Of a stretch of 64,000 nucleotides of DNA, positions 47,288-56,065 are shown in pieces. Origin of the DNA: Alphaproteobacteria bacterium (GTDB taxonomy: Bacteria; Pseudomonadota; Alphaproteobacteria; RF32; CAG-239); contig JAZLAM010000016.1 of assembly GCA_045613125.1 (NCBI GenBank), forward strand, positions 4,699 through 68,698. Direction: 5' to 3'. The first letter of the stretch is position 1. Every line of letters begins with the position of its first letter. The position numbers were made by a program, and so were the translations under genes. The notes beneath the pieces were generated by a model, which was not told where the DNA came from, ran no database searches, and saw only the letters and a list, made by a program, of their open reading frames with translations.

Positions 47288-48011
47288 TTTCTCTTTTCTT
47301 TAAATATGTTTCTAACATTGCAAGTTCTTCTCGTGTATTAGCACTTGCCACTTCTTCAGCATCACCTTCAAAAGCCGTACATTTTAAGCCCATTTTTGAA
47401 GCAACTTCAACAGCATCTGTAAGATAATATTCGCCGGCAGCATTTTCATTGCCTATTTTAGCTAATATATCAAATAAAACTTTACCATCAAAAGCCATAA
47501 AACCGGAATTACAAAAATCTATAGCTCTTTCTTCTTCCGTAGCGTCTTTATATTCAACGATTCGCTCTAATGTATTGCCGTTCATTTTTAAACGTCCGTA
47601 ACGAGACGGATCTTTAGGTCTAAAACCTAATACAACCACACTATATCCTTCACGAACCTTATTAACTGAGCGTTCAAAAGTTTCTTTTTTAATAAGAGGA
47701 GTATCTCCGAAAATTACCATAACAGGACCATCAAAGTCTTTTAAAATATCAGATGCACAATTTACCGCATGTCCGGTTCCGAGTTGTTTATCTTGAACAC
47801 ATGTCTTATATGGTGCAACTTCTTTTTTTACAATATCACCATCCGGAGCAATTACCGTAACTATCTCATCAACTTTAAGTTCTTCTAAGGTGTCTATAAT
47901 CCGTTTTACCATTGATTTATTGCATACAGGCATCATAACTTTCGGTAAGTCAGATTTCATGCGAGTACCCTTTCCGGCTCCTAAAATAATTGCGGCAATT
48001 TTATTGTTCAT
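47280..48011 (-). CDS. glmU: GlmU N-terminal uridyltransferase domain only (243 aa)
   Basis: LGAGKGTRMKSDLPK, QLGTGHAV, GDTPLI, YGR, IVEYKDA, GEYYLTD; no hexapeptide acetyltransferase domain. Confidence 0.88.
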   Translation of the reverse strand: MNNKIAAIILGAGKGTRMKSDLPKVMMPVCNKSMVKRIIDTLEELKVDEIVTVIAPDGDIVKKEVAPYKTCVQDKQLGTGHAVNCASDILKDFDGPVMVIFGDTPLIKKETFERSVNKVREGYSVVVLGFRPKDPSRYGRLKMNGNTLERIVEYKDATEEERAIDFCNSGFMAFDGKVLFDILAKIGNENAAGEYYLTDAVEVASKMGLKCTAFEGDAEEVASANTREELAMLETYLKKRENA

Positions 48012-48099
48012 AAATTTTCTCCTTTTGTTTTATCTTTTTTTAATATCTGTATCATATAATACAAAATATGTTTTATTAGTTAATATCGGGAATAACTTT

Positions 48100-50184
48100 A
48101 TGAGAAAACTTTTTTTTGCAATTTGTTTCATTGTTTCGATGATTTTTTCATTTTCAACTTTTTCTGCTGTTTCAACAATAACAGAAGTTGAAGTACAGCA
48201 AGAAAGTTCTAAAAAATTAGATCCTTTTCAACCTGTGGAGGGTATGCCTAATCCTAATAATTTAGAAGAGGTTATCAGTTTTTTCAAAAAACGTTTCCAA
48301 ACAGTAAATGTATCAACTGCTGAAGAAATAGGTGATTTAAATAAAACTAATTCTATGAACATTCAACATTCTAAAGAATATATCGAAAATTTGCAAAAAG
48401 AAAACAGATCAACTTTTGAAAAAATTTATGATGAAGCCATGAAACGTATTTCCGGAGAAGACGATTCTTCCCAAACACAATCTCAAACAGTTTTTTATAC
48501 TCAAAATCAAGATCGACTTATCGAAGAAACAATTCTACAACCTGATATTGATGTTGTGAATGTTATATTGCCAAATGGTAGTAAAATTCTTGCTCCGGCT
48601 AAAGAACATATTCCTTATTTGTTAACATCAATAAACATTTTACCTACCGGTCTTATTCAAATAAATGAAGAAATAACCGTTGTAGCTAACAATCAAAAAC
48701 TTAAAAACGGTGTTATAAAAATATTACCTAAATTCTCCAGATCTCGTGCAGGTGTTAAGAAAAAACTTGATATAGATTTATTAAGCGTTTCTATAAATGG
48801 GGAGGAAATTCCTTATATTTTAGAAGAAATTGGTGATAAAATATATATAAAACCGCAGCAAAAATATACATTAGCCCCTGGTGTTTATAATTATAAATTC
48901 AGTTACTTATTGGATCGTAAACTTTGGTACTATGACGACTTTACAGAATTTTATTGGGATGTGAGCGGAAGCTACTTCAATTTAGTGATAGGATCTGCAA
49001 ATGCTATTGTATCTATAGCAGACGGAAAAAACTTTTTATCGCAAAACGTAATGACTGGTTTCCCATCACAACTTTCTCCTAACAGAACTGTTGTTGCTAA
49101 ATTAGATACAAACGCTTTAGGTTTTGCATCTATTACTCCGCTTTGGCCAGGCGAAGGTATGCATATTTTGGTTTCTCTTGATAAAGATGTGTTTTTATCA
49201 CCTGACATAAATCGTAATTTTATATGGTTTATAACCGATTATGGTGATATTTTCTTTGCTGTTTTAGGACTGCTTGCTATTGTGATTTCATATATGATTT
49301 CATGGAATTATATTAAGAAAAACAAATCAAAACTTTCATCCTCATTCAAAAACACAGCGTCTGCAGCAAGATATTTTGTTTATAGTATTTTTGATAAAAA
49401 ATCTTTTGTTGCACATTTAATGGAATTAAAGAAAAAACAATATATAGATATTCAAAAACAAGATGAAACTGTACTACTTGTAAAAAGAACCGATAATTTA
49501 TCAAAATTATCTAAAAAAGAGAAAAAAGCTTTAAACCATTTATTTGCAGGAAAGGATTCGGTTATAAGTGCAACAAGTCCAAATGCTTTAAAATTCACAA
49601 GAGCTTATAGTGAACTTAAAAAATTACATGATTCATCAATCAAAAATTTGAATTTGAAACTCAATTTGGGTTACTTAATGTTTAGCATAGGGATGCTTGT
49701 TTTAGTTGAAATTGCAATATCTATGCTTGGTATCAATCCATGGCAAACAGCTGCAGTTATATTATCGTCTAGTATAACCATTGCTTTTTATACATATATG
49801 CTTAAAAAACGCTTTAATTCAAAAATATTAAACTATATCGTAAAGTGTTTTGGCTCTATCTTTATTCTTTTTGCAATTTTATTTATGAGTATTTATATTC
49901 ATTTAATAAGCTCTATAATTATAGCCGTAATTATTTATTCTATTTTTGAATATTCTGCAATTTTCAGTAAAAGAGGCGGATTATTAAAAAATAAAATTAA
50001 AGAAATAAATAATCTAAAAACATATTTAGAAAATAATGTATCTATAATATCTATTTCTCAAGATTTTATAAATCAACAAGCTTATATATATGCTTTAGAT
50101 TTGGAAAAATTCTATGCAAAGAATGATTTTAACAAAAAAGTATATATATTGGACGATGTTAAAAAAATTGAAGCTTTGTTATAA
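48100..50184 (+). CDS. DUF2207-like membrane protein
   Basis: Signal peptide at ATG 48100; EEITV, EFYWDVSG, L.PGEG..I; several C-terminal TM helices. Confidence 0.75.
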   Translation: MRKLFFAICFIVSMIFSFSTFSAVSTITEVEVQQESSKKLDPFQPVEGMPNPNNLEEVISFFKKRFQTVNVSTAEEIGDLNKTNSMNIQHSKEYIENLQKENRSTFEKIYDEAMKRISGEDDSSQTQSQTVFYTQNQDRLIEETILQPDIDVVNVILPNGSKILAPAKEHIPYLLTSINILPTGLIQINEEITVVANNQKLKNGVIKILPKFSRSRAGVKKKLDIDLLSVSINGEEIPYILEEIGDKIYIKPQQKYTLAPGVYNYKFSYLLDRKLWYYDDFTEFYWDVSGSYFNLVIGSANAIVSIADGKNFLSQNVMTGFPSQLSPNRTVVAKLDTNALGFASITPLWPGEGMHILVSLDKDVFLSPDINRNFIWFITDYGDIFFAVLGLLAIVISYMISWNYIKKNKSKLSSSFKNTASAARYFVYSIFDKKSFVAHLMELKKKQYIDIQKQDETVLLVKRTDNLSKLSKKEKKALNHLFAGKDSVISATSPNALKFTRAYSELKKLHDSSIKNLNLKLNLGYLMFSIGMLVLVEIAISMLGINPWQTAAVILSSSITIAFYTYMLKKRFNSKILNYIVKCFGSIFILFAILFMSIYIHLISSIIIAVIIYSIFEYSAIFSKRGGLLKNKIKEINNLKTYLENNVSIISISQDFINQQAYIYALDLEKFYAKNDFNKKVYILDDVKKIEALL

Positions 50185-50193
50185 AAAACTAAA

Positions 50194-50267
50194 GCGGGTA
50201 TAATTCAATGGTAGAATGAGAGCTTCCCAAGCTTTTAATGCGGGTTCGATTCCCGTTACCCGCTCCA
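50194..50267 (+). tRNA. tRNA-Gly(CCC)
   Basis: GCGGGTA/TACCCGC-TCCA acceptor, anticodon loop TT-CCC-AA, GGTTCGATTCC. Confidence 0.97.
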
Positions 50268-50498: not shown

Positions 50499-51437
50499 AT
50501 GTCAGAATATTCTTCAAAACTTATTATTATAGGTTCAGGACCTGCCGGATATACGGCTGCAATATATGCAGCTCGGGCCGGACTAAATCCGATATTGGTT
50601 GCCGGAAATCAAATCGGTGGACAACTTACAATGACTTCTGTTATAGAAAATTTTCCCGGTTTTGCTAAACCTATAACCGGAAACGAACTGATGGAAAACA
50701 TGCGCCAACAATCATTAAACACTGGAGTTACCATCATTGAAGATAAAATAACTGAAGTAGATTTTGTTAATAGACCTTTCATTTTAAGTTCTGAAAAAGG
50801 TAACTTTTTTACAGCCCAATCCATCATTATTGCGACAGGCTCATCTGCTAAATGGCTTGAATTAGAATCTGAAAAAAAATATATCGGTTTTGGAGTATCT
50901 GCTTGCGCAACTTGTGATGCTTTTTTCTATAAAAATAAAACTGTGGCCGTTGTTGGTGGTGGAAATTCTGCTGCTGAAGAAGCTCTATATTTAACAAATT
51001 TTGCTTCAAAAGTAATTTTAATTCACCGACGTGATACTTTGCGCGCTGATAGTATTATGCAAAAACGTTTGCAAGAAAATCATAAAATAAACATTTTATG
51101 GAACAGTGTTATAAAAGAAATTAAGGGGGATGAAAATCCTAAATCTGTTAATATGATAACCGTTAAAAATGTAAAAACAGATGAAGAACAACATATCAAT
51201 ATTGATGGTGTTTTTATAGCAATCGGACATAAACCTAACACAGATATATTTAAAGAATATCTTAATCTTGATGAAACCGGATATATAAAAACCAATCCCG
51301 ATAGCACACAAACAAATATTGCTGGAGTTTTTGCTGCCGGAGATGTAAAAGACCATCGTTTCAGACAAGCAATTACAGCAGCAGGAAGCGGTGCAATGGC
51401 TGCTATGGAAGCAACTAAATATCTTTCAGAAATATAA
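50499..51437 (+). CDS. trxB: Thioredoxin reductase
   Basis: GSGPAGYTAAIY, CATCD, VGGGNSA.EEA, AAGDV. Confidence 0.98.
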   Translation: MSEYSSKLIIIGSGPAGYTAAIYAARAGLNPILVAGNQIGGQLTMTSVIENFPGFAKPITGNELMENMRQQSLNTGVTIIEDKITEVDFVNRPFILSSEKGNFFTAQSIIIATGSSAKWLELESEKKYIGFGVSACATCDAFFYKNKTVAVVGGGNSAAEEALYLTNFASKVILIHRRDTLRADSIMQKRLQENHKINILWNSVIKEIKGDENPKSVNMITVKNVKTDEEQHINIDGVFIAIGHKPNTDIFKEYLNLDETGYIKTNPDSTQTNIAGVFAAGDVKDHRFRQAITAAGSGAMAAMEATKYLSEI

Positions 51438-51440
51438 AAC

Positions 51441-51468
51441 TTGACAATTTAAAACTTTGTATTATATT
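51441..51468 (+). promoter_or_regulatory. Promoter of the NAD salvage cluster
   Basis: TTGACA-N16-TATATT. Confidence 0.6.
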
Positions 51469-51475
51469 AAAGATA

Positions 51476-51592
51476 TTCTTGTCGCTTTTAGGGCTTATAA
51501 GCGAAGAACTTATATAAACCGAGCCGAGGTTGATTTTGTTGCAAATGTTTTTATGTTGCAATTGATGTCGGCTCCTATAAAGGAGTTTTTTT
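51476..51592 (+). promoter_or_regulatory. Candidate cis-regulatory RNA, copy 1 (NAD salvage leader)
   Basis: TTCTT-GT-CGCTT-[TTAGGGCTTAT]-AAGCG-AAGAA hairpin; mutually exclusive downstream stems over the SD. Confidence 0.65.
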
Positions 51593-52135
51593 ATGACAGA
51601 ATATAAATATAAACATGGTCTTAGCATTATGCGTGCACAACCTTTCCATATCGGACACGCAAAAATAATTGATAAGATGCTTCAATGTTGTGAAAAAGTT
51701 ACCATTATTCTAGGGTCAATCCAAGAACACGGAACATCAAGAAATCCGTTAAATTATACAACCAGAAAAAAAATGATACAAAATATTTATCGCTCAACTC
51801 CTGATTATGAGCGCTTAAAGATTATTGGTCTTTTTGATATTAATAATCCGGCAGAATGGGGAGATTATGTATTCGATTTTATATCTGAAACTTTGCCTGA
51901 TTTACCGACACCTGACGTATATTTTGCCGGAAGCACTTATGATGCACATTGGTTTAAGGAACGCTTTAAAACAATTGAGCTTGTTGACAGAACAGATCCG
52001 GATTTTCCGTTTGTTACGGGAACTATGGTTAGAGATATGATAAAATTTGGTGACAATCGTTGGAAAAATTTTATACATCCTCAAAACTATCAAATTATTG
52101 AAGATAATTTTAATCGTAAAAAAGCAATTATATAA
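51593..52135 (+). CDS. nadM: NMN/NaMN adenylyltransferase (NadM-like)
   Basis: MRAQPFHIGH, ILGS, RNPL...RK.MI, TGT.VR. Confidence 0.8.
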   Translation: MTEYKYKHGLSIMRAQPFHIGHAKIIDKMLQCCEKVTIILGSIQEHGTSRNPLNYTTRKKMIQNIYRSTPDYERLKIIGLFDINNPAEWGDYVFDFISETLPDLPTPDVYFAGSTYDAHWFKERFKTIELVDRTDPDFPFVTGTMVRDMIKFGDNRWKNFIHPQNYQIIEDNFNRKKAII

Positions 52136-52151
52136 ACCGTTTCGGTTTAAA

Positions 52152-52227
52152 GCATCTGTGTCTTTTGAAGGGCTTATAAAAGACAGATGCAAAAACAACC
52201 CTAAATAAGCCACGAAAGGGAATTAAT
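52152..52227 (+). promoter_or_regulatory. Candidate cis-regulatory RNA, copy 2 (pncA leader)
   Basis: GCATCT-GT-GTCTTTT-[GAAGGGCTTAT]-AAAAGAC-AGATGC; downstream ATAAGCC complementary to the loop. Confidence 0.65.
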
Positions 52228-52842
52228 ATGAATAAACGTATTTTAATGCGGATAGATTTTCAAAACGATTTTGTTCATCCGCAAGGTGATTTAACTATAT
52301 CCGATATTGATCTTATAGAAAGACATCAAAAATTTGCCAATTCTTTACAATCTGATATGATAGATTTAATTATAGATTCTTATGATACACATTTTTCACA
52401 AACATATAAAAATACCATAGAATCTGAAAAATTTCCACCTCATTGTATTTTTGGTTCTTGGGGATGGCAAAGCGCCGCTCCGCTAAAAAACAACATAGAA
52501 ACCATAAATATTTTTAAATCAACAACCAATATTTGGAATGAGAAAAATACATACCAAATTTTAGCTCAAGATTGGAACAATAAAGATGTATATTTATGTG
52601 GTGTTTTAAGTGAAGTTTGTGTTTATCAAGCTATGAAAGGTCTGTTAAAACAAGGTGCAAATGTTATTATTATTGAAGATTTATGTAAAGGTATAAATGC
52701 TCAAACAAGTGATATTTTAGCTCATCCTGATTTTCAAGTTGTAAAAGAAACAGGACAATTAAAAAGTATTACATCATCACAGTTTTTTCGTTCAAATCTT
52801 TTAAATAAAAAAATTGAGCATAATTTAGTTTACAGACAATAA
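52228..52842 (+). CDS. pncA: Nicotinamidase (isochorismatase family)
   Basis: IDFQNDFV..G.L, DTH, FPPHC..G.WG, K, GVLSEVCV; next to pncB. Confidence 0.85.
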   Translation: MNKRILMRIDFQNDFVHPQGDLTISDIDLIERHQKFANSLQSDMIDLIIDSYDTHFSQTYKNTIESEKFPPHCIFGSWGWQSAAPLKNNIETINIFKSTTNIWNEKNTYQILAQDWNNKDVYLCGVLSEVCVYQAMKGLLKQGANVIIIEDLCKGINAQTSDILAHPDFQVVKETGQLKSITSSQFFRSNLLNKKIEHNLVYRQ

Positions 52843-52853
52843 GGGGAACACTC

Positions 52854-54317
52854 ATGATAAATAATATTTTACATACAGGAACACCATTTTATTGTGATTT
52901 ATACCATTTAACAATGGCACAAGCTTGGTTTAAGGATAACAAACACTTAGAAAATAAAACTTCAGAAGCTTTTTTCAGACGCTGTCCTTTTGGTGGAAGC
53001 TATCTTGTATCTGCCGGTTTGCAAGAATTTGTTGAATGGATAGATAATTGGCATATTTCACAAAAAGATATAGATTACCTTAAAACATTAAAAAATGCTG
53101 ACGGAAAATCCTTGTTTGATGAAAATTTTTTGAATTTTCTTAAAGATCAAAAACTAAATCTGACTATAAACGCTGTAGCCGAAGGAGAAATTGTTTTTCC
53201 TAATGAACCTGTTTTAAGTGTTAACGGTCCTTGTTGGCAAGTTGATATGGTTGAAGCAGCTTTTTTAAATATATTTAATGCTCAAAGCCTGATAGCAACA
53301 AAAGCATCTCGTATAGTAAATGCAGCCACAGCTGACGGCAAGAAAAGGCCAGTTATGGAATTTGGTTTAAGAAGAGCTCAAGATATGGCATGTTTTTTAC
53401 CTACAAGAGCATCTTATATCGGAGGATGTGTAGGAACATCAAATGTAGCAGCAGCACAATATTACGGAATTGAGGTTAAAGGAACTATGGCTCACTCTTT
53501 TATAATGAGTTATGAAAATGAACTTGATGCATTTAAGTCTTATCTGATAGCTTCTGAAGGAAATACAACACTGCTTGTTGATACATATGATACAAGAGAA
53601 GGTATTAAAAATGCTATTAAAGCATCTGAAGAAACAGGTATAAAATTACAAGGAATAAGAATAGATTCCGGCGATTTGGCATATTGGAGTAAAGAAGCAA
53701 GAAAACTTCTTGATGCATCAAATATGGAACATACAAAAATTGTAGCATCAAATGATTTAGATGAATATTTAATTGAAAATCTTATCATGGTTCAAAAAGC
53801 ACCTATTGATATTTTTGCTGTCGGCACAAAACTTGTTACAGCTTATGATAATCCGGCTTTAGGAGGTGTATTTAAAACCAAAGAATATAATCATCAACCT
53901 AAAATAAAAATAGCTGAAGGAAAAACAACAATACCGGGATCTACAAATGTGATCCGTATTGTTAAAAACGGTAAATATGAAGGAGATATAATAACAAAGT
54001 CTGCTGACAACTTAATAAGCAACGGAAAACTGAACAGAAATGTACAATCTTTCAAATTAAAATCTTTAACCGGAGAAAACACTGTTTTTAAACAAGGACA
54101 AACTGCTTACTCGTTGCTAAAACCTATCATGCAAAATGGTCATATAATAAAGCATTATTTAAGCTTAAAACAAATACAAGAAAAAACTCTTCGTCATTTG
54201 AATAATTTGGATAATTCTTACAAACGTCTTGCCAATCCACACGTATACGGCGTAGGCTTAGAACAAAATTTGTTTAGTTTACAACAGCAACTTATAAAAC
54301 AACATCAAGAGAGGTAG
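52854..54317 (+). CDS. pncB: Nicotinate phosphoribosyltransferase
   Basis: DLY.LTM, EFGLRRAQ, GTMAHSF, LVDTYD, RIDSGDL, ASNDLDE. Confidence 0.95.
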   Translation: MINNILHTGTPFYCDLYHLTMAQAWFKDNKHLENKTSEAFFRRCPFGGSYLVSAGLQEFVEWIDNWHISQKDIDYLKTLKNADGKSLFDENFLNFLKDQKLNLTINAVAEGEIVFPNEPVLSVNGPCWQVDMVEAAFLNIFNAQSLIATKASRIVNAATADGKKRPVMEFGLRRAQDMACFLPTRASYIGGCVGTSNVAAAQYYGIEVKGTMAHSFIMSYENELDAFKSYLIASEGNTTLLVDTYDTREGIKNAIKASEETGIKLQGIRIDSGDLAYWSKEARKLLDASNMEHTKIVASNDLDEYLIENLIMVQKAPIDIFAVGTKLVTAYDNPALGGVFKTKEYNHQPKIKIAEGKTTIPGSTNVIRIVKNGKYEGDIITKSADNLISNGKLNRNVQSFKLKSLTGENTVFKQGQTAYSLLKPIMQNGHIIKHYLSLKQIQEKTLRHLNNLDNSYKRLANPHVYGVGLEQNLFSLQQQLIKQHQER

Positions 54318-54319
54318 TT

Positions 54320-55093
54320 ATGGAAAAACTTTGGAATGATTTAAAGCAAAAATTTAAGTCTTACTGTGAAAAAAACAACTTTAACAAAGTTATTTTAGGT
54401 TTGTCGGGAGGACTTGATTCTGCTATAGTTGCCGTTCTGGCATCAGATGTTTTAGGTGGTCAAAATGTAACTGCAATTATGATGAGAACAAAATACACAT
54501 CTTCTTTAAGTATAAGCATTGCAAGAGAAATTTCTAAACTAAATAATCTTAATTATCATGAATTTGATATTCAAAATTTGATAGATTTTGAAACAGTGTA
54601 TTTAAAAGATTTCTTCAAAGAAGAGCCTAAAAATATTGTTCTTGAAAATTTACAAGCAAGAGCAAGAGCAAAAATTTTAATGGCTTGGTCAAATCAGTTT
54701 GGAGGAGTAGTTTTAGCTTGTTCAAATAAATCTGAAATTTTAACGGGATATTGTACACTTTACGGAGATACTTGTGGCGCTTTTATACCTTTAGGTAATA
54801 TTTATAAATCGGATATTTTTGAATTGGCAAAATATAGAAATTCTTTAAGTAGAGTATTACCGTCTGAGGTGATTGTAAGAGCTCCGAGTGCTGAACTTGC
54901 GCTAAATCAAAAAGATGAAAACTCATTACCTCCATATAAAGAATTGGATTTAATATTAAAACAATATGTTGATAATAACTTATCTTTTGAAGAAATTATT
55001 GCTCAAGGTCAAAATATTAAAACTTGTCAAAAAGTGATAACATTATATGAAAAAAGTACATTCAAAAGAAAACAATTACCTCCGATATTATAG
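54320..55093 (+). CDS. nadE: NH3-dependent NAD+ synthetase
   Basis: GLSGGLDS, ENLQAR, NKSE..GY.TLYGD, PSAEL..Q.DE..LPPY. Confidence 0.95.
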   Translation: MEKLWNDLKQKFKSYCEKNNFNKVILGLSGGLDSAIVAVLASDVLGGQNVTAIMMRTKYTSSLSISIAREISKLNNLNYHEFDIQNLIDFETVYLKDFFKEEPKNIVLENLQARARAKILMAWSNQFGGVVLACSNKSEILTGYCTLYGDTCGAFIPLGNIYKSDIFELAKYRNSLSRVLPSEVIVRAPSAELALNQKDENSLPPYKELDLILKQYVDNNLSFEEIIAQGQNIKTCQKVITLYEKSTFKRKQLPPIL

Positions 55094-55126: not shown

Positions 55127-56064
55127 TTACCTTACAACTTTTTGTTTTCTTGCTTTTAATCTGGTAAGTTTATCACTTATGGTGGCTGTATCTTTTCCGG
55201 CTTTAGCAAGTCTGTCATACATACGCTCTATTTCTTTTTCCAAATATGCTGTTTCAATTTCTTCATCAAGAGCTTTATTTTCTTCTTCACCACCATTTTT
55301 TCGTATATTTTCTATTTCTTCCAAAATATCTTCAATAAAAATATTACTTATTTGCTTTCTTTTGTAGAAATAAGGAAGTTCATAAACCAGTTGACGAGCA
55401 TTAGCATAAGCTTGTTTAGAATTTTCGCATTTATTATATCGTATTTTTAACAATCTGAAAGCTATTTCCAACTCTTGATTATTATCTACAACAATAAAAG
55501 GAACAGGCTCGGCAAAACCTTTTGCACTAATTGATTTTAAAAATTCTAAAAGATGATGAAAAAAACCATTTACATTATAAATAATAAAAGGTTTTATAGC
55601 AAGTAAACCATCTTGCATAGCAACACAATCATAAGCAAGCTCATCAAGAGTACCTACACCTCCAGGCGCAAAAACAACAAAATCTGCAGCAAGAAGTTTT
55701 TGTTTTCTTTCTTCTAGTGTTTTTGCAACAATAACATCTGTTTGTTTTATTAATTCATCATCTGACGGATATAAACGATAGTATTCTTCTGTTGTCACAC
55801 CTTGTATCGGAAAATTTGTATCTGAGCAGTTTTTTTCTTTCCATTTATCTAAAACACCTCGTGCTACTGCACCCATAATTCCTTTGTTAGAAAGACCAAA
55901 ATCAAGCTTAAAATCCATCTTTATAATTTGACAACCTAAATTATAAGCTTCTTGTTCATAAATTTCATCATTTCCGGGTCTTGACCCTCCGGCTACAAAA
56001 ACTCTTATTCCTTCTTTTTGATTCTGTTCAATAAAAGTTTTAATGTTCGTGCATGTATCAACCA

Positions 56065-56065
<1 letters not shown>
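55127..56065 (-). CDS. LOG-family (nucleotide phosphoribohydrolase) protein with C-terminal helical extension
   Basis: GIMGAVARG, ERK, PGGVGTLDE, N.NGFF..L. Confidence 0.85.

Follow-up and report, generated by a model that had tools for sequence, protein, structure and literature searches.

A pseudoknotted leader RNA of NAD salvage genes in gut Alphaproteobacteria, probably a new class of riboswitch

The leaders of two nicotinamide adenine dinucleotide (NAD) salvage genes, nadM and pncA, in an uncultured gut or rumen alphaproteobacterium carry diverged copies of one pseudoknotted RNA. Both lie in the window, namely the 64,000-nucleotide (nt) stretch of contig JAZLAM010000016.1 (assembly GCA_045613125.1) analysed here, where an earlier note made from the letters alone had marked them as a candidate riboswitch or cis-regulatory RNA. 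The RNA structures are conserved, their alternative pairings are mutually exclusive, and they are restricted to NAD salvage genes, save for one copy described below. Because a pseudoknotted RNA occupies two leaders, undergoes compensatory changes in many relatives and matches no catalogued family, the element probably represents a class of cis-acting RNA not catalogued before; most likely it is an OFF riboswitch that would bind a metabolite and control NAD salvage. Hereafter the nadM-leader copy is termed type 1, the pncA-leader copy type 2, and a third, diverged variant found outside the window type 3.

The cluster is encoded on the + strand within 50499-55093, a region that also holds a thioredoxin reductase gene, and comprises the following genes, by which, according to established knowledge of the pathway, nicotinamide is converted to NAD+ along the whole Preiss-Handler salvage route.

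51593-52135, + strand: nadM-like gene for a nicotinamide/nicotinate-nucleotide adenylyltransferase of 180 aa (Pfam CTP_transf_like above cut-off; NCBIfam matches below curated cut-offs)
52228-52842, + strand: pncA-like nicotinamidase gene (isochorismatase family; weak match to the PncA model)
52854-54317, + strand: pncB, nicotinate phosphoribosyltransferase PncB
54320-55093, + strand: nadE, NAD synthetase NadE

Both copies open with a bulged hairpin, P1, capped by an 11-nt loop, L1.

51476-51508, + strand: type 1 P1 hairpin (lower stem 51476-79/51505-08; 5' bulge T51480 G51481; upper stem 51482-87/51499-504)
51488-51498, + strand: type 1 loop L1, UUAGGGCUUAU, 11 nt
52152-52190, + strand: type 2 P1 hairpin (lower stem 52152-58/52184-90; bulge U52159 G52160; upper stem 52161-66/52178-83)
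52167-52177, + strand: type 2 loop L1, GAAGGGCUUAU, 11 nt

The loop NNAGGGCUUAU is common to both hairpins and has the form NN-AGGGCTTAT. On the two strands of the 1.44-Mb genome the 9-mer AGGGCTTAT occurs 11 times, and takes a hairpin-loop position only in the two cluster copies. Covariance models were built from relatives for the nadM-leader type (R2) and the pncA-leader type (R1). Run on the bacterium's own genome, R2 gave 69 bits to the nadM leader and 31.9 bits to the pncA leader (next match 15.6 bits), and R1 gave 74.4 bits to the pncA leader and 26 bits to the nadM leader (next match 16.5 bits); with these two as the only R1/R2 sites, the motif is not scattered genome-wide. A plain pattern search with the 9-mer in 21 relatives was rejected, since chance copies turned up in every genome and a reversed control was about as frequent, leaving a mere hint of paired sites ∼680 nt apart.

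The common hairpin architecture that the earlier note had read from the two leaders is borne out by stem covariation in both types. Type 1 P1 carries double compensatory changes in 9-10 of its 11-12 pairs (10/12 in a MAFFT alignment of 29 sequences, with 94.8% of cells paired), and type 2 P1 in 10 of 13 pairs (95% paired, MAFFT alignment of 26 sequences); slid-partner controls of these MAFFT alignments had only 40-55% of cells paired. In a larger model-fitted type 2 alignment of 92 hits comprising 70 distinct sequences, the count rose to 11 of 13 pairs with 96.9% of cells paired. Moreover, RNAalifold recovered P1 unaided from plain, unfitted MAFFT alignments of both types, and placed a 2-nt 5' bulge N-G, whose G is invariant, ahead of an upper stem of 6 bp and the 11-nt loop. 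The 5' bulge of the earlier note therefore stands, and its conserved ‘GT’ and its upper stems of 5 and 7 bp give way to this N-G plus 6-bp register: type 2 pair 10-36 of the new register forms in all 70 distinct sequences (G-C 53, U-G 11, C-G 5, A-U 1), versus 54 of 70 for the 12-36 pair of the former one. The coordinates proposed in that note for the hairpins, loops, partners, terminator, CCCT and Shine-Dalgarno sequence (SD) all agreed with the sequence. Single-stranded conservation is limited to short features, i.e. the loop AG, the bulged G and an AAC before the partner of the loop. Comparative sequence data thus support a structured cis-regulatory RNA that is present twice in the NAD salvage cluster.

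The partner, a downstream stretch complementary to L1, is flanked in both types by the arms of a second small hairpin, P2.

51517-51531, + strand: type 1 P2 mini-hairpin AACC/GGUU, enclosing the partner GAGCC (51521-51525), which pairs with L1 GGCUU (pseudoknot or kissing contact)
52199-52220, + strand: type 2 P2 with its partner (5' arm CCCU, 52199-202; partner AUAAGCC, 52205-11; 3' arm AGGG, 52217-20)

As the partner lies inside the P2 loop, the aptamer would consist of two adjacent hairpins with an A-rich linker between them and a loop-loop (kissing) pseudoknot. The type 2 partner AUAAGCC(U) lies 25-30 nt downstream of the loop G(G)GCUUAU, with 7 bp between GGCUUAU and AUAAGCC in the window, and the eight proposed pairs of this helix are 97.3% paired over the 70 distinct sequences. 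Pair 26-66 changes from U-A to C-G in four distinct sequences and is never changed on one side only, and loops GGGCCUAU or GGACCUAU (GGCCUAU; leaders L088, L118, L123 and L137) always occur with the partner AUAGGCC or UAGGCC. The same co-variation was seen in a genome of another order (G137), whose spacer element combines loop GGGCCUAU (GGCCU) with partner AGGCC, and whose nadM-leader element combines loop GGGCUAAAU (GGCUA) with UAGCC, by which the U-G wobble of the family becomes A-U. Judged from these compensatory changes, the loop-to-downstream pseudoknot that the earlier note had drawn is real.

The P2 arms are likewise conserved as pairing. Per-sequence analysis found a type 1 P2 of at least 4 bp flanking GAGCC in 72 of 72 distinct sequences, versus 14% with shuffled 3' flanks, with arms as diverse as AACC/GGUU, AAACU/AGUUU, GAAC/GUUC and others, and CGGC/GCCG in a further genome, G176; scoring by fixed MAFFT columns, which returned 37.9% paired, was discarded as an alignment-register artefact. 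In type 2 the P2 arms are CCY and the RGG of the SD, and the 3' arm AGGG (52217-20) is itself the SD of pncA. The tally over the 70 sequences (minus four skipped by the script) found CCC only with GGG-containing SDs (37/37), and the 17 AGG-only SDs had the arm CCU in 15 and another in two, never CCC, in line with the proposed pairing of CCCT with the SD AGGG. The other pairing put forward in the earlier note, CCCT with the loop AGGG, would involve a loop that shows no variation.

Both types would couple this aptamer to an expression platform, and the features of the nadM leader that bear on it are listed below.

51441-51468, + strand: sigma-70-like promoter of the nadM operon, TTGACA-16 nt-TATATT (consensus scan, 11/12 matches)
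51568-51574, + strand: 3' strand of the antiterminator/anti-sequestor, UCGGCUC, pairing with GAGCCGA (51521-51527)
51570-51592, + strand: intrinsic-terminator-like, SD-hiding hairpin GGCUCCU-AUAA-AGGAGUU plus U7, directly before the nadM AUG at 51593

TTGAC stands at the same position in 61 of 73 related leaders, and the nadM transcript would start a few nt 5' of P1. The terminator scan found one terminator-like hairpin, whose stem of 7 pairs (51570-51587) precedes a T-run that reaches the nadM ATG, so that 51570-51592 has the G+C-containing stem-loop and subsequent U-run of an intrinsic terminator. Such an arrangement is general: among the 75 distinct type 1 leaders, 73 have NNGGCUYC...RGGAG and, behind it, 6-9 U that stop 0-2 nt short of the AUG, and the remaining two have GAGCUCC or AAGCUCC variants. 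The partner GAGCC is complementary to GGCUC of the terminator hairpin, and GAGCCGA:UCGGCUC is present in both the minimum free energy (MFE) and the centroid fold of the window's nadM leader. Unconstrained MFE folds contain this antiterminator in 54 of 73 type 1 leaders, and when loop and partner were blocked as a mimic of the folded aptamer, all 73 adopted the terminator/SD-sequestering hairpin, for an energy penalty of 0-6.4 kcal/mol. Next to the antiterminator core, the flanking pair was G-C in 50 leaders, A-U in 8 and G-U in 2, with 13 mismatches (A-C 8, G-A 5); U stood at the 3' position opposite 8 of 16 A, versus 2 of 57 G. The nadM platform outlined in the earlier note is hence upheld by the wider set of leaders, and predicted, mutually exclusive structures are coupled to the aptamer. 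Leader-peptide attenuation was considered and rejected, as the sole small open reading frame (ORF) of the window leader lacks conservation and lies in the central part, which is variable. Type 1 leaders of some genera (L023-L030, L097 and others) have a longer spacer between aptamer and terminator, so that P1 to U-run spans up to 261 nt versus ∼120 nt typically; the insert is conserved and contains TCTAGCTGGCAACTAAAGCAATTTTACGCGG.

The putative aptamer of ∼55-60 nt thus comprises a bulged P1 with an invariant 11-nt loop, and P2, joined in an intramolecular kissing-loop pseudoknot in which GGCUU(AU) of the loop would pair with the P2-loop stretch GAGCC in the nadM type or AUAAGCC in the pncA type. 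In the nadM leader, the folded, presumably ligand-bound aptamer would hold GAGCC in the loop, allowing the GGCUCCU...AGGAG hairpin and its U-run to form, by which transcription would be terminated and the SD hidden; in the unfolded aptamer, GAGCCG would pair with CGGCUC, the terminator hairpin would be blocked and the operon expressed. The nadM-pncA spacer, 92 nt and intercistronic, contains no terminator, and no + strand promoter was found there by consensus scan. As the 3' arm of its P2 is the SD of pncA, folding of the kissing complex would block initiation of pncA translation, and type 2 would accordingly be a device of translational repression within a polycistronic mRNA, with pncA-pncB-nadE (52228..55093) as the genes that it regulates. 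From the anatomy of both platforms the folded aptamer is expected to be the OFF state in both types, and the OFF logic suggested in the earlier note follows for nadM from a folded aptamer that would free the terminator. A further small hairpin, AAACCGTTTCGGTTT, lies at 52136-52150 between the nadM stop codon and type 2 P1, and comparable sequences are not conserved in relatives.

The element accompanies nadM throughout a group of related bacteria. A NadM protein search gave matches in 58 of 101 genomes of the order, and its best 30 NadM loci carried type 1 in 30/30 and type 2, in the nadM-pncA spacer, in 27/30. Scanning GTDB species genomes with the NadM alignment returned 80 loci, all titled as metagenome-assembled genomes of uncultured gut/rumen Alphaproteobacteria or equivalents. 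When these and 20 earlier loci (72 distinct sequences) were tested with R2, a type 1 element was found at 100 of 100 nadM loci, i.e. the motif is present in orthologous leaders. In the family sample, R2 matched 75 of 151 genomes with one type 1 element each and never more than two hits per genome, the second hit being weaker, ∼680 nt downstream on the same strand and not present in every genome. Across the class, sampled by one genome per family in 150 other families, R2 matched G183, G137 and G176 plus one false positive, and R1 added nothing to the R2 matches in this sample. The element precedes nadM-pncB-pncA-nadE in G183 and nadM-pncB-pncA in G176, and in G137 one element stands before nadM and a second before pncA, so a conserved, covarying domain recurs in the leaders of functionally related genes (nadM, pncA, pncB, nadE and pnuC operons). 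A second, near-identical type 1 copy of G176 (G176:C2:655081-655111, minus strand; L058/L140) precedes a 311-aa RlmN/Cfr-like radical SAM gene (below curated cut-offs) and two ORFs lacking family hits. Samples centred on the family of G176 and the order of G137 each yielded only G176 or G137 itself. Three weaker matches were dismissed as noise: the R2 false positive of the class sample (L057, 28.3 bits), which lies inside a SufB-like ORF as judged by translation and misses one loop G, and covariance-model matches L143 (23.9 bits; upper stem and loop absent) and L181 (22.9 bits; stems mismatched).

The type 3 element lies outside the window in the bacterium's own genome, at G000:C22:78338-78394 and onward (leader 78290-78430; L165/L169), upstream of a second nadM paralog, nadM2 (C22:78430-78987). 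Its operon encodes NadM2, a PF01996 (F420-0 gamma-glutamyl ligase-like) protein, a 172-aa protein of unknown function, PnuC and a nucleoside 2-deoxyribosyltransferase-like protein. The layout repeats that of type 1, namely promoter, GUUCG-GG-UGCUU hairpin, partner, antiterminator, and SD-containing terminator plus U7 followed by AUG; it differs in a 9-nt loop GAGGGCWAU (GAGGGCAAU in the own genome) and the partner UGGCC (UUGGCC in the own genome). R3, a covariance model of six type 3 leaders, found a single copy, always ahead of the nadM2 paralog, in 13 of 151 family genomes, and also matched G183, where loop GAGGACUAU (GGAC) meets GGUUAG, with A-U in place of a G-C pair. Run without filters, the type 1 model aligned all six type 3 leaders at 8.7-23.1 bits, loop to loop and partner to partner, and gave nothing above 8.5 bits on 15 upstream regions of diverged or additional nadM copies (L150-L164, mostly of motif-less genera); types 1-3 thus represent diverged forms of a single class, and between them are found in all NAD salvage operons visible in the organism. 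The shortened type 3 loop may reflect a shifted ligand preference, e.g. for nicotinamide mononucleotide (NMN) or nicotinamide riboside (NR) rather than NAD+ or nicotinic acid adenine dinucleotide (NaAD).

Known RNA families do not account for the element. Scanning the whole window with all 4227 Rfam 15 models by cmscan at gathering score returned two tRNAs only, and over 51300-52400 at E up to 10 only noise of at most 17 bits (STnc220, RsaF, CRISPR-DR10 and a snoRNA). No NAD riboswitch family of this release, which presumably includes the pnuC motif model, matched at gathering score or, over 51300-52400, at E up to 10, in agreement with the earlier note, which recognised neither NAD+-I nor NAD+-II. 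No description of the motif was found in the full-text literature, with supplements and subscription journals outside coverage, nor were the names ‘NAD+-III’ or ‘NAD-III’ found in full text; the portion of PMC11109978 available to us mentions only nqrA-II and pntA candidates.

NAD+-II, which binds the nicotinamide moiety of NAD+, NMN or NR, is one of the closest known systems. Both are small pseudoknotted leader RNAs of NAD salvage or uptake genes with an A-rich linker after P1, in both the pseudoknot or an adjacent helix occludes the ribosome-binding site with OFF logic (here predicted), and type 3 heads an operon containing pnuC. NAD+-II (the pnuC motif; Panchapakesan et al. 2021, PMC7749635; structures in PMC10085692 and PMC9841397) counts ∼130 representatives in Streptococcus, and its pseudoknot is formed by direct pairing of the ribosome-binding site with a 5' strand situated in the internal loop that separates P1 from P1a (PMC10085692, PMC7749635). 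The present RNA lacks this topology of P1, internal loop, P1a and internal-loop strand:ribosome-binding site pseudoknot; instead, its pseudoknot joins the terminal loop of P1 to that of a second hairpin, and the internal feature is a 2-nt bulge. Its conserved nucleotides also differ, its hosts are gut Alphaproteobacteria rather than the Streptococcus of those sources, and type 1 adds a transcription terminator platform. NAD+-I (the nadA motif; Malkowski et al. 2019, as cited in PMC7749635) has 101 representatives, in Acidobacteria only (PMC7749635), and is built of two tandem bulged stem-loop domains (PMC10702441). Both it and the present RNA are candidate NAD+ sensors upstream of NAD biosynthesis genes, rare and of narrow phylogenetic range, but here a single domain, one hairpin plus a loop-loop pseudoknot, stands in an alphaproteobacterial host without nadA and without an Rfam match, which sets it apart from that class. 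The RNA would work like the NAD+-I and NAD+-II switches but belongs to neither family.

In the small pseudoknot riboswitches (preQ1-I/II/III, SAM-II/V and guanidine-III) and in the kissing hairpins of guanidine-II, a pseudoknot or loop-loop pairing is the switch. The present RNA resembles them in an aptamer below 60 nt, a pairing that a ligand would stabilise and an SD sequestered in or next to the pseudoknot; it differs in loop, partner and gene association, and none of these Rfam families matched it.

If the element is a riboswitch, its ligand would be the end product of the pathway, NAD+, or a close relative such as NaAD, NMN or nicotinic acid mononucleotide (NaMN), because OFF logic on salvage genes fits an end product, and a small molecule rather than a protein would stabilise the fold. 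Beyond this, we lean slightly towards a third, structurally distinct NAD+-sensing class (‘NAD+-III’), a ∼55-nt kissing-loop pseudoknot with three diverged copies in one bacterium and two kinds of platform, i.e. termination for nadM1 and nadM2-pnuC, and SD sequestration for pncA in the same operon as nadM1, which would place the whole NAD salvage regulon under direct RNA control.

Several observations weigh against these proposals. Because the sequences are related, the covariation counts overstate the number of independent events. One uncompensated pseudoknot mismatch each occurs in L137, L012, L086 and L063/64/75, and the fifth pseudoknot pair of type 1 is unpaired in L127 (loop GGGCUAAU) and L054. 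Across families only GGCU/AGCC of the type 1 pseudoknot is constant and, as the loop is nearly invariant, covariation support for this helix comes from single outgroup variants. With its 7-8 bp, the type 2 pseudoknot might need no ligand to form, and the terminator is already present in the unconstrained MFE folds of 20 of 73 type 1 leaders. The distribution is narrow, with three of the 150 other families of the class and no credible R2 hit in 150 other genomes of the phylum sample, and the RlmN/Cfr-like gene behind the second copy of G176 has no evident NAD link.

Among the other explanations, it is possible, if rather unlikely, that the same pseudoknotted leader is read by a protein, either a dedicated regulator or an autogenous pathway enzyme, that senses NAD and attenuates in the manner of PyrR or TRAP. 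The short single-stranded features named above (loop AG, bulged G and AAC) could be its recognition site, and the position of types 1 and 3 before nadM paralogs is compatible with autoregulation by NadM; yet most of the conserved loop is engaged in covarying RNA-RNA pairing, the element also precedes pncA and once the unrelated radical SAM gene, the annotated clusters of four families, which were not searched systematically, showed no obvious regulator gene, and the compact aptamer-plus-platform design is, as we take to be established, typical of small pseudoknot riboswitches. An element that responds to no ligand at all and just sets the basal expression of the salvage operon, be it a constitutive attenuator, a signal for mRNA stability or processing, or a switch controlled by temperature, Mg2+ or the speed of transcription, would account for a type 2 pseudoknot that could be stable by itself and for terminators preformed in part of the type 1 folds. 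We regard it as improbable, however, and hard to sustain because across many genera the loop stays unchanged and the stems vary, two nearly isoenergetic and mutually exclusive folds are conserved, and three diverged versions in four families are all tied to NAD salvage genes, all of which fits a pathway-specific signal.

That the inverted repeats are DNA operators of an NAD-metabolism transcription factor of the NiaR, NrtR or NadR type is very unlikely. Palindromes near a promoter and before NAD genes are indeed what such regulons generally display, but here pairing is maintained although the stems vary in sequence from site to site and from species to species, the conserved part is an asymmetric loop, the non-palindromic downstream partner covaries with that loop, and type 2 sits in an intercistronic spacer. 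What is conserved is thus pairing rather than sequence, as would not be expected of a NiaR (YrxA) operator, and the NiaR 3H domain (PF02829) was not found in the genome, in a search whose controls from B. subtilis and T. maritima matched; NrtR and NadR were not searched for. A metabolite-binding riboswitch therefore remains the explanation that we prefer.

NadA (PF02445) and QRPTase_C/NadC (PF01729) were also not found in the own genome, which has 33% G+C and is 100% complete by marker genes. With these and the NiaR 3H domain absent, salvage is the only visible NAD route, and the organism is apparently auxotrophic for NAD, relying on niacin or NR salvage. For NAD+, an ancient and abundant cofactor, only two rare riboswitch classes have been described, and the authors of NAD+-II explicitly expected further ones (PMC7749635). 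If our proposal is true, a third, unrelated aptamer would represent a new small fold that recognises a nicotinamide or adenine dinucleotide, and would explain how niacin salvage is tuned in genome-reduced, NAD-auxotrophic gut Alphaproteobacteria. The Preiss-Handler salvage route is otherwise known under protein regulators, and RNA-based control of it (pncA, pncB, nadE and nadM) would thereby be demonstrated. The motif is short and well defined, and natural compensatory variants of it exist.

RNA data were present in two bovine-gut metatranscriptome runs of a single study (0.07-0.08 of sampled words); upon alignment they gave five short contig pieces of 90-99% identity, which stem from relatives and carry no start, end or strand information. 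The neighbours of the cluster, each having no visible link to the motif, are a gene for a 764-aa DUF2207 membrane protein (47890-50184), a tRNA gene (50194-50264) and, on the minus strand, a gene for a LOG/TIGR00730-family (lysine-decarboxylase-like) protein (55127-56065). Finally, in motif-less genera the regions upstream of diverged nadM orthologs of 52-59% identity (L153-L164) share a block AGTCAATATA..TTGTATTTGCAA..TTGCAA, located ∼60-90 nt before the start codon. The block may be a promoter plus a protein operator, which would suggest a different, perhaps protein-based, control of nadM in those genera.

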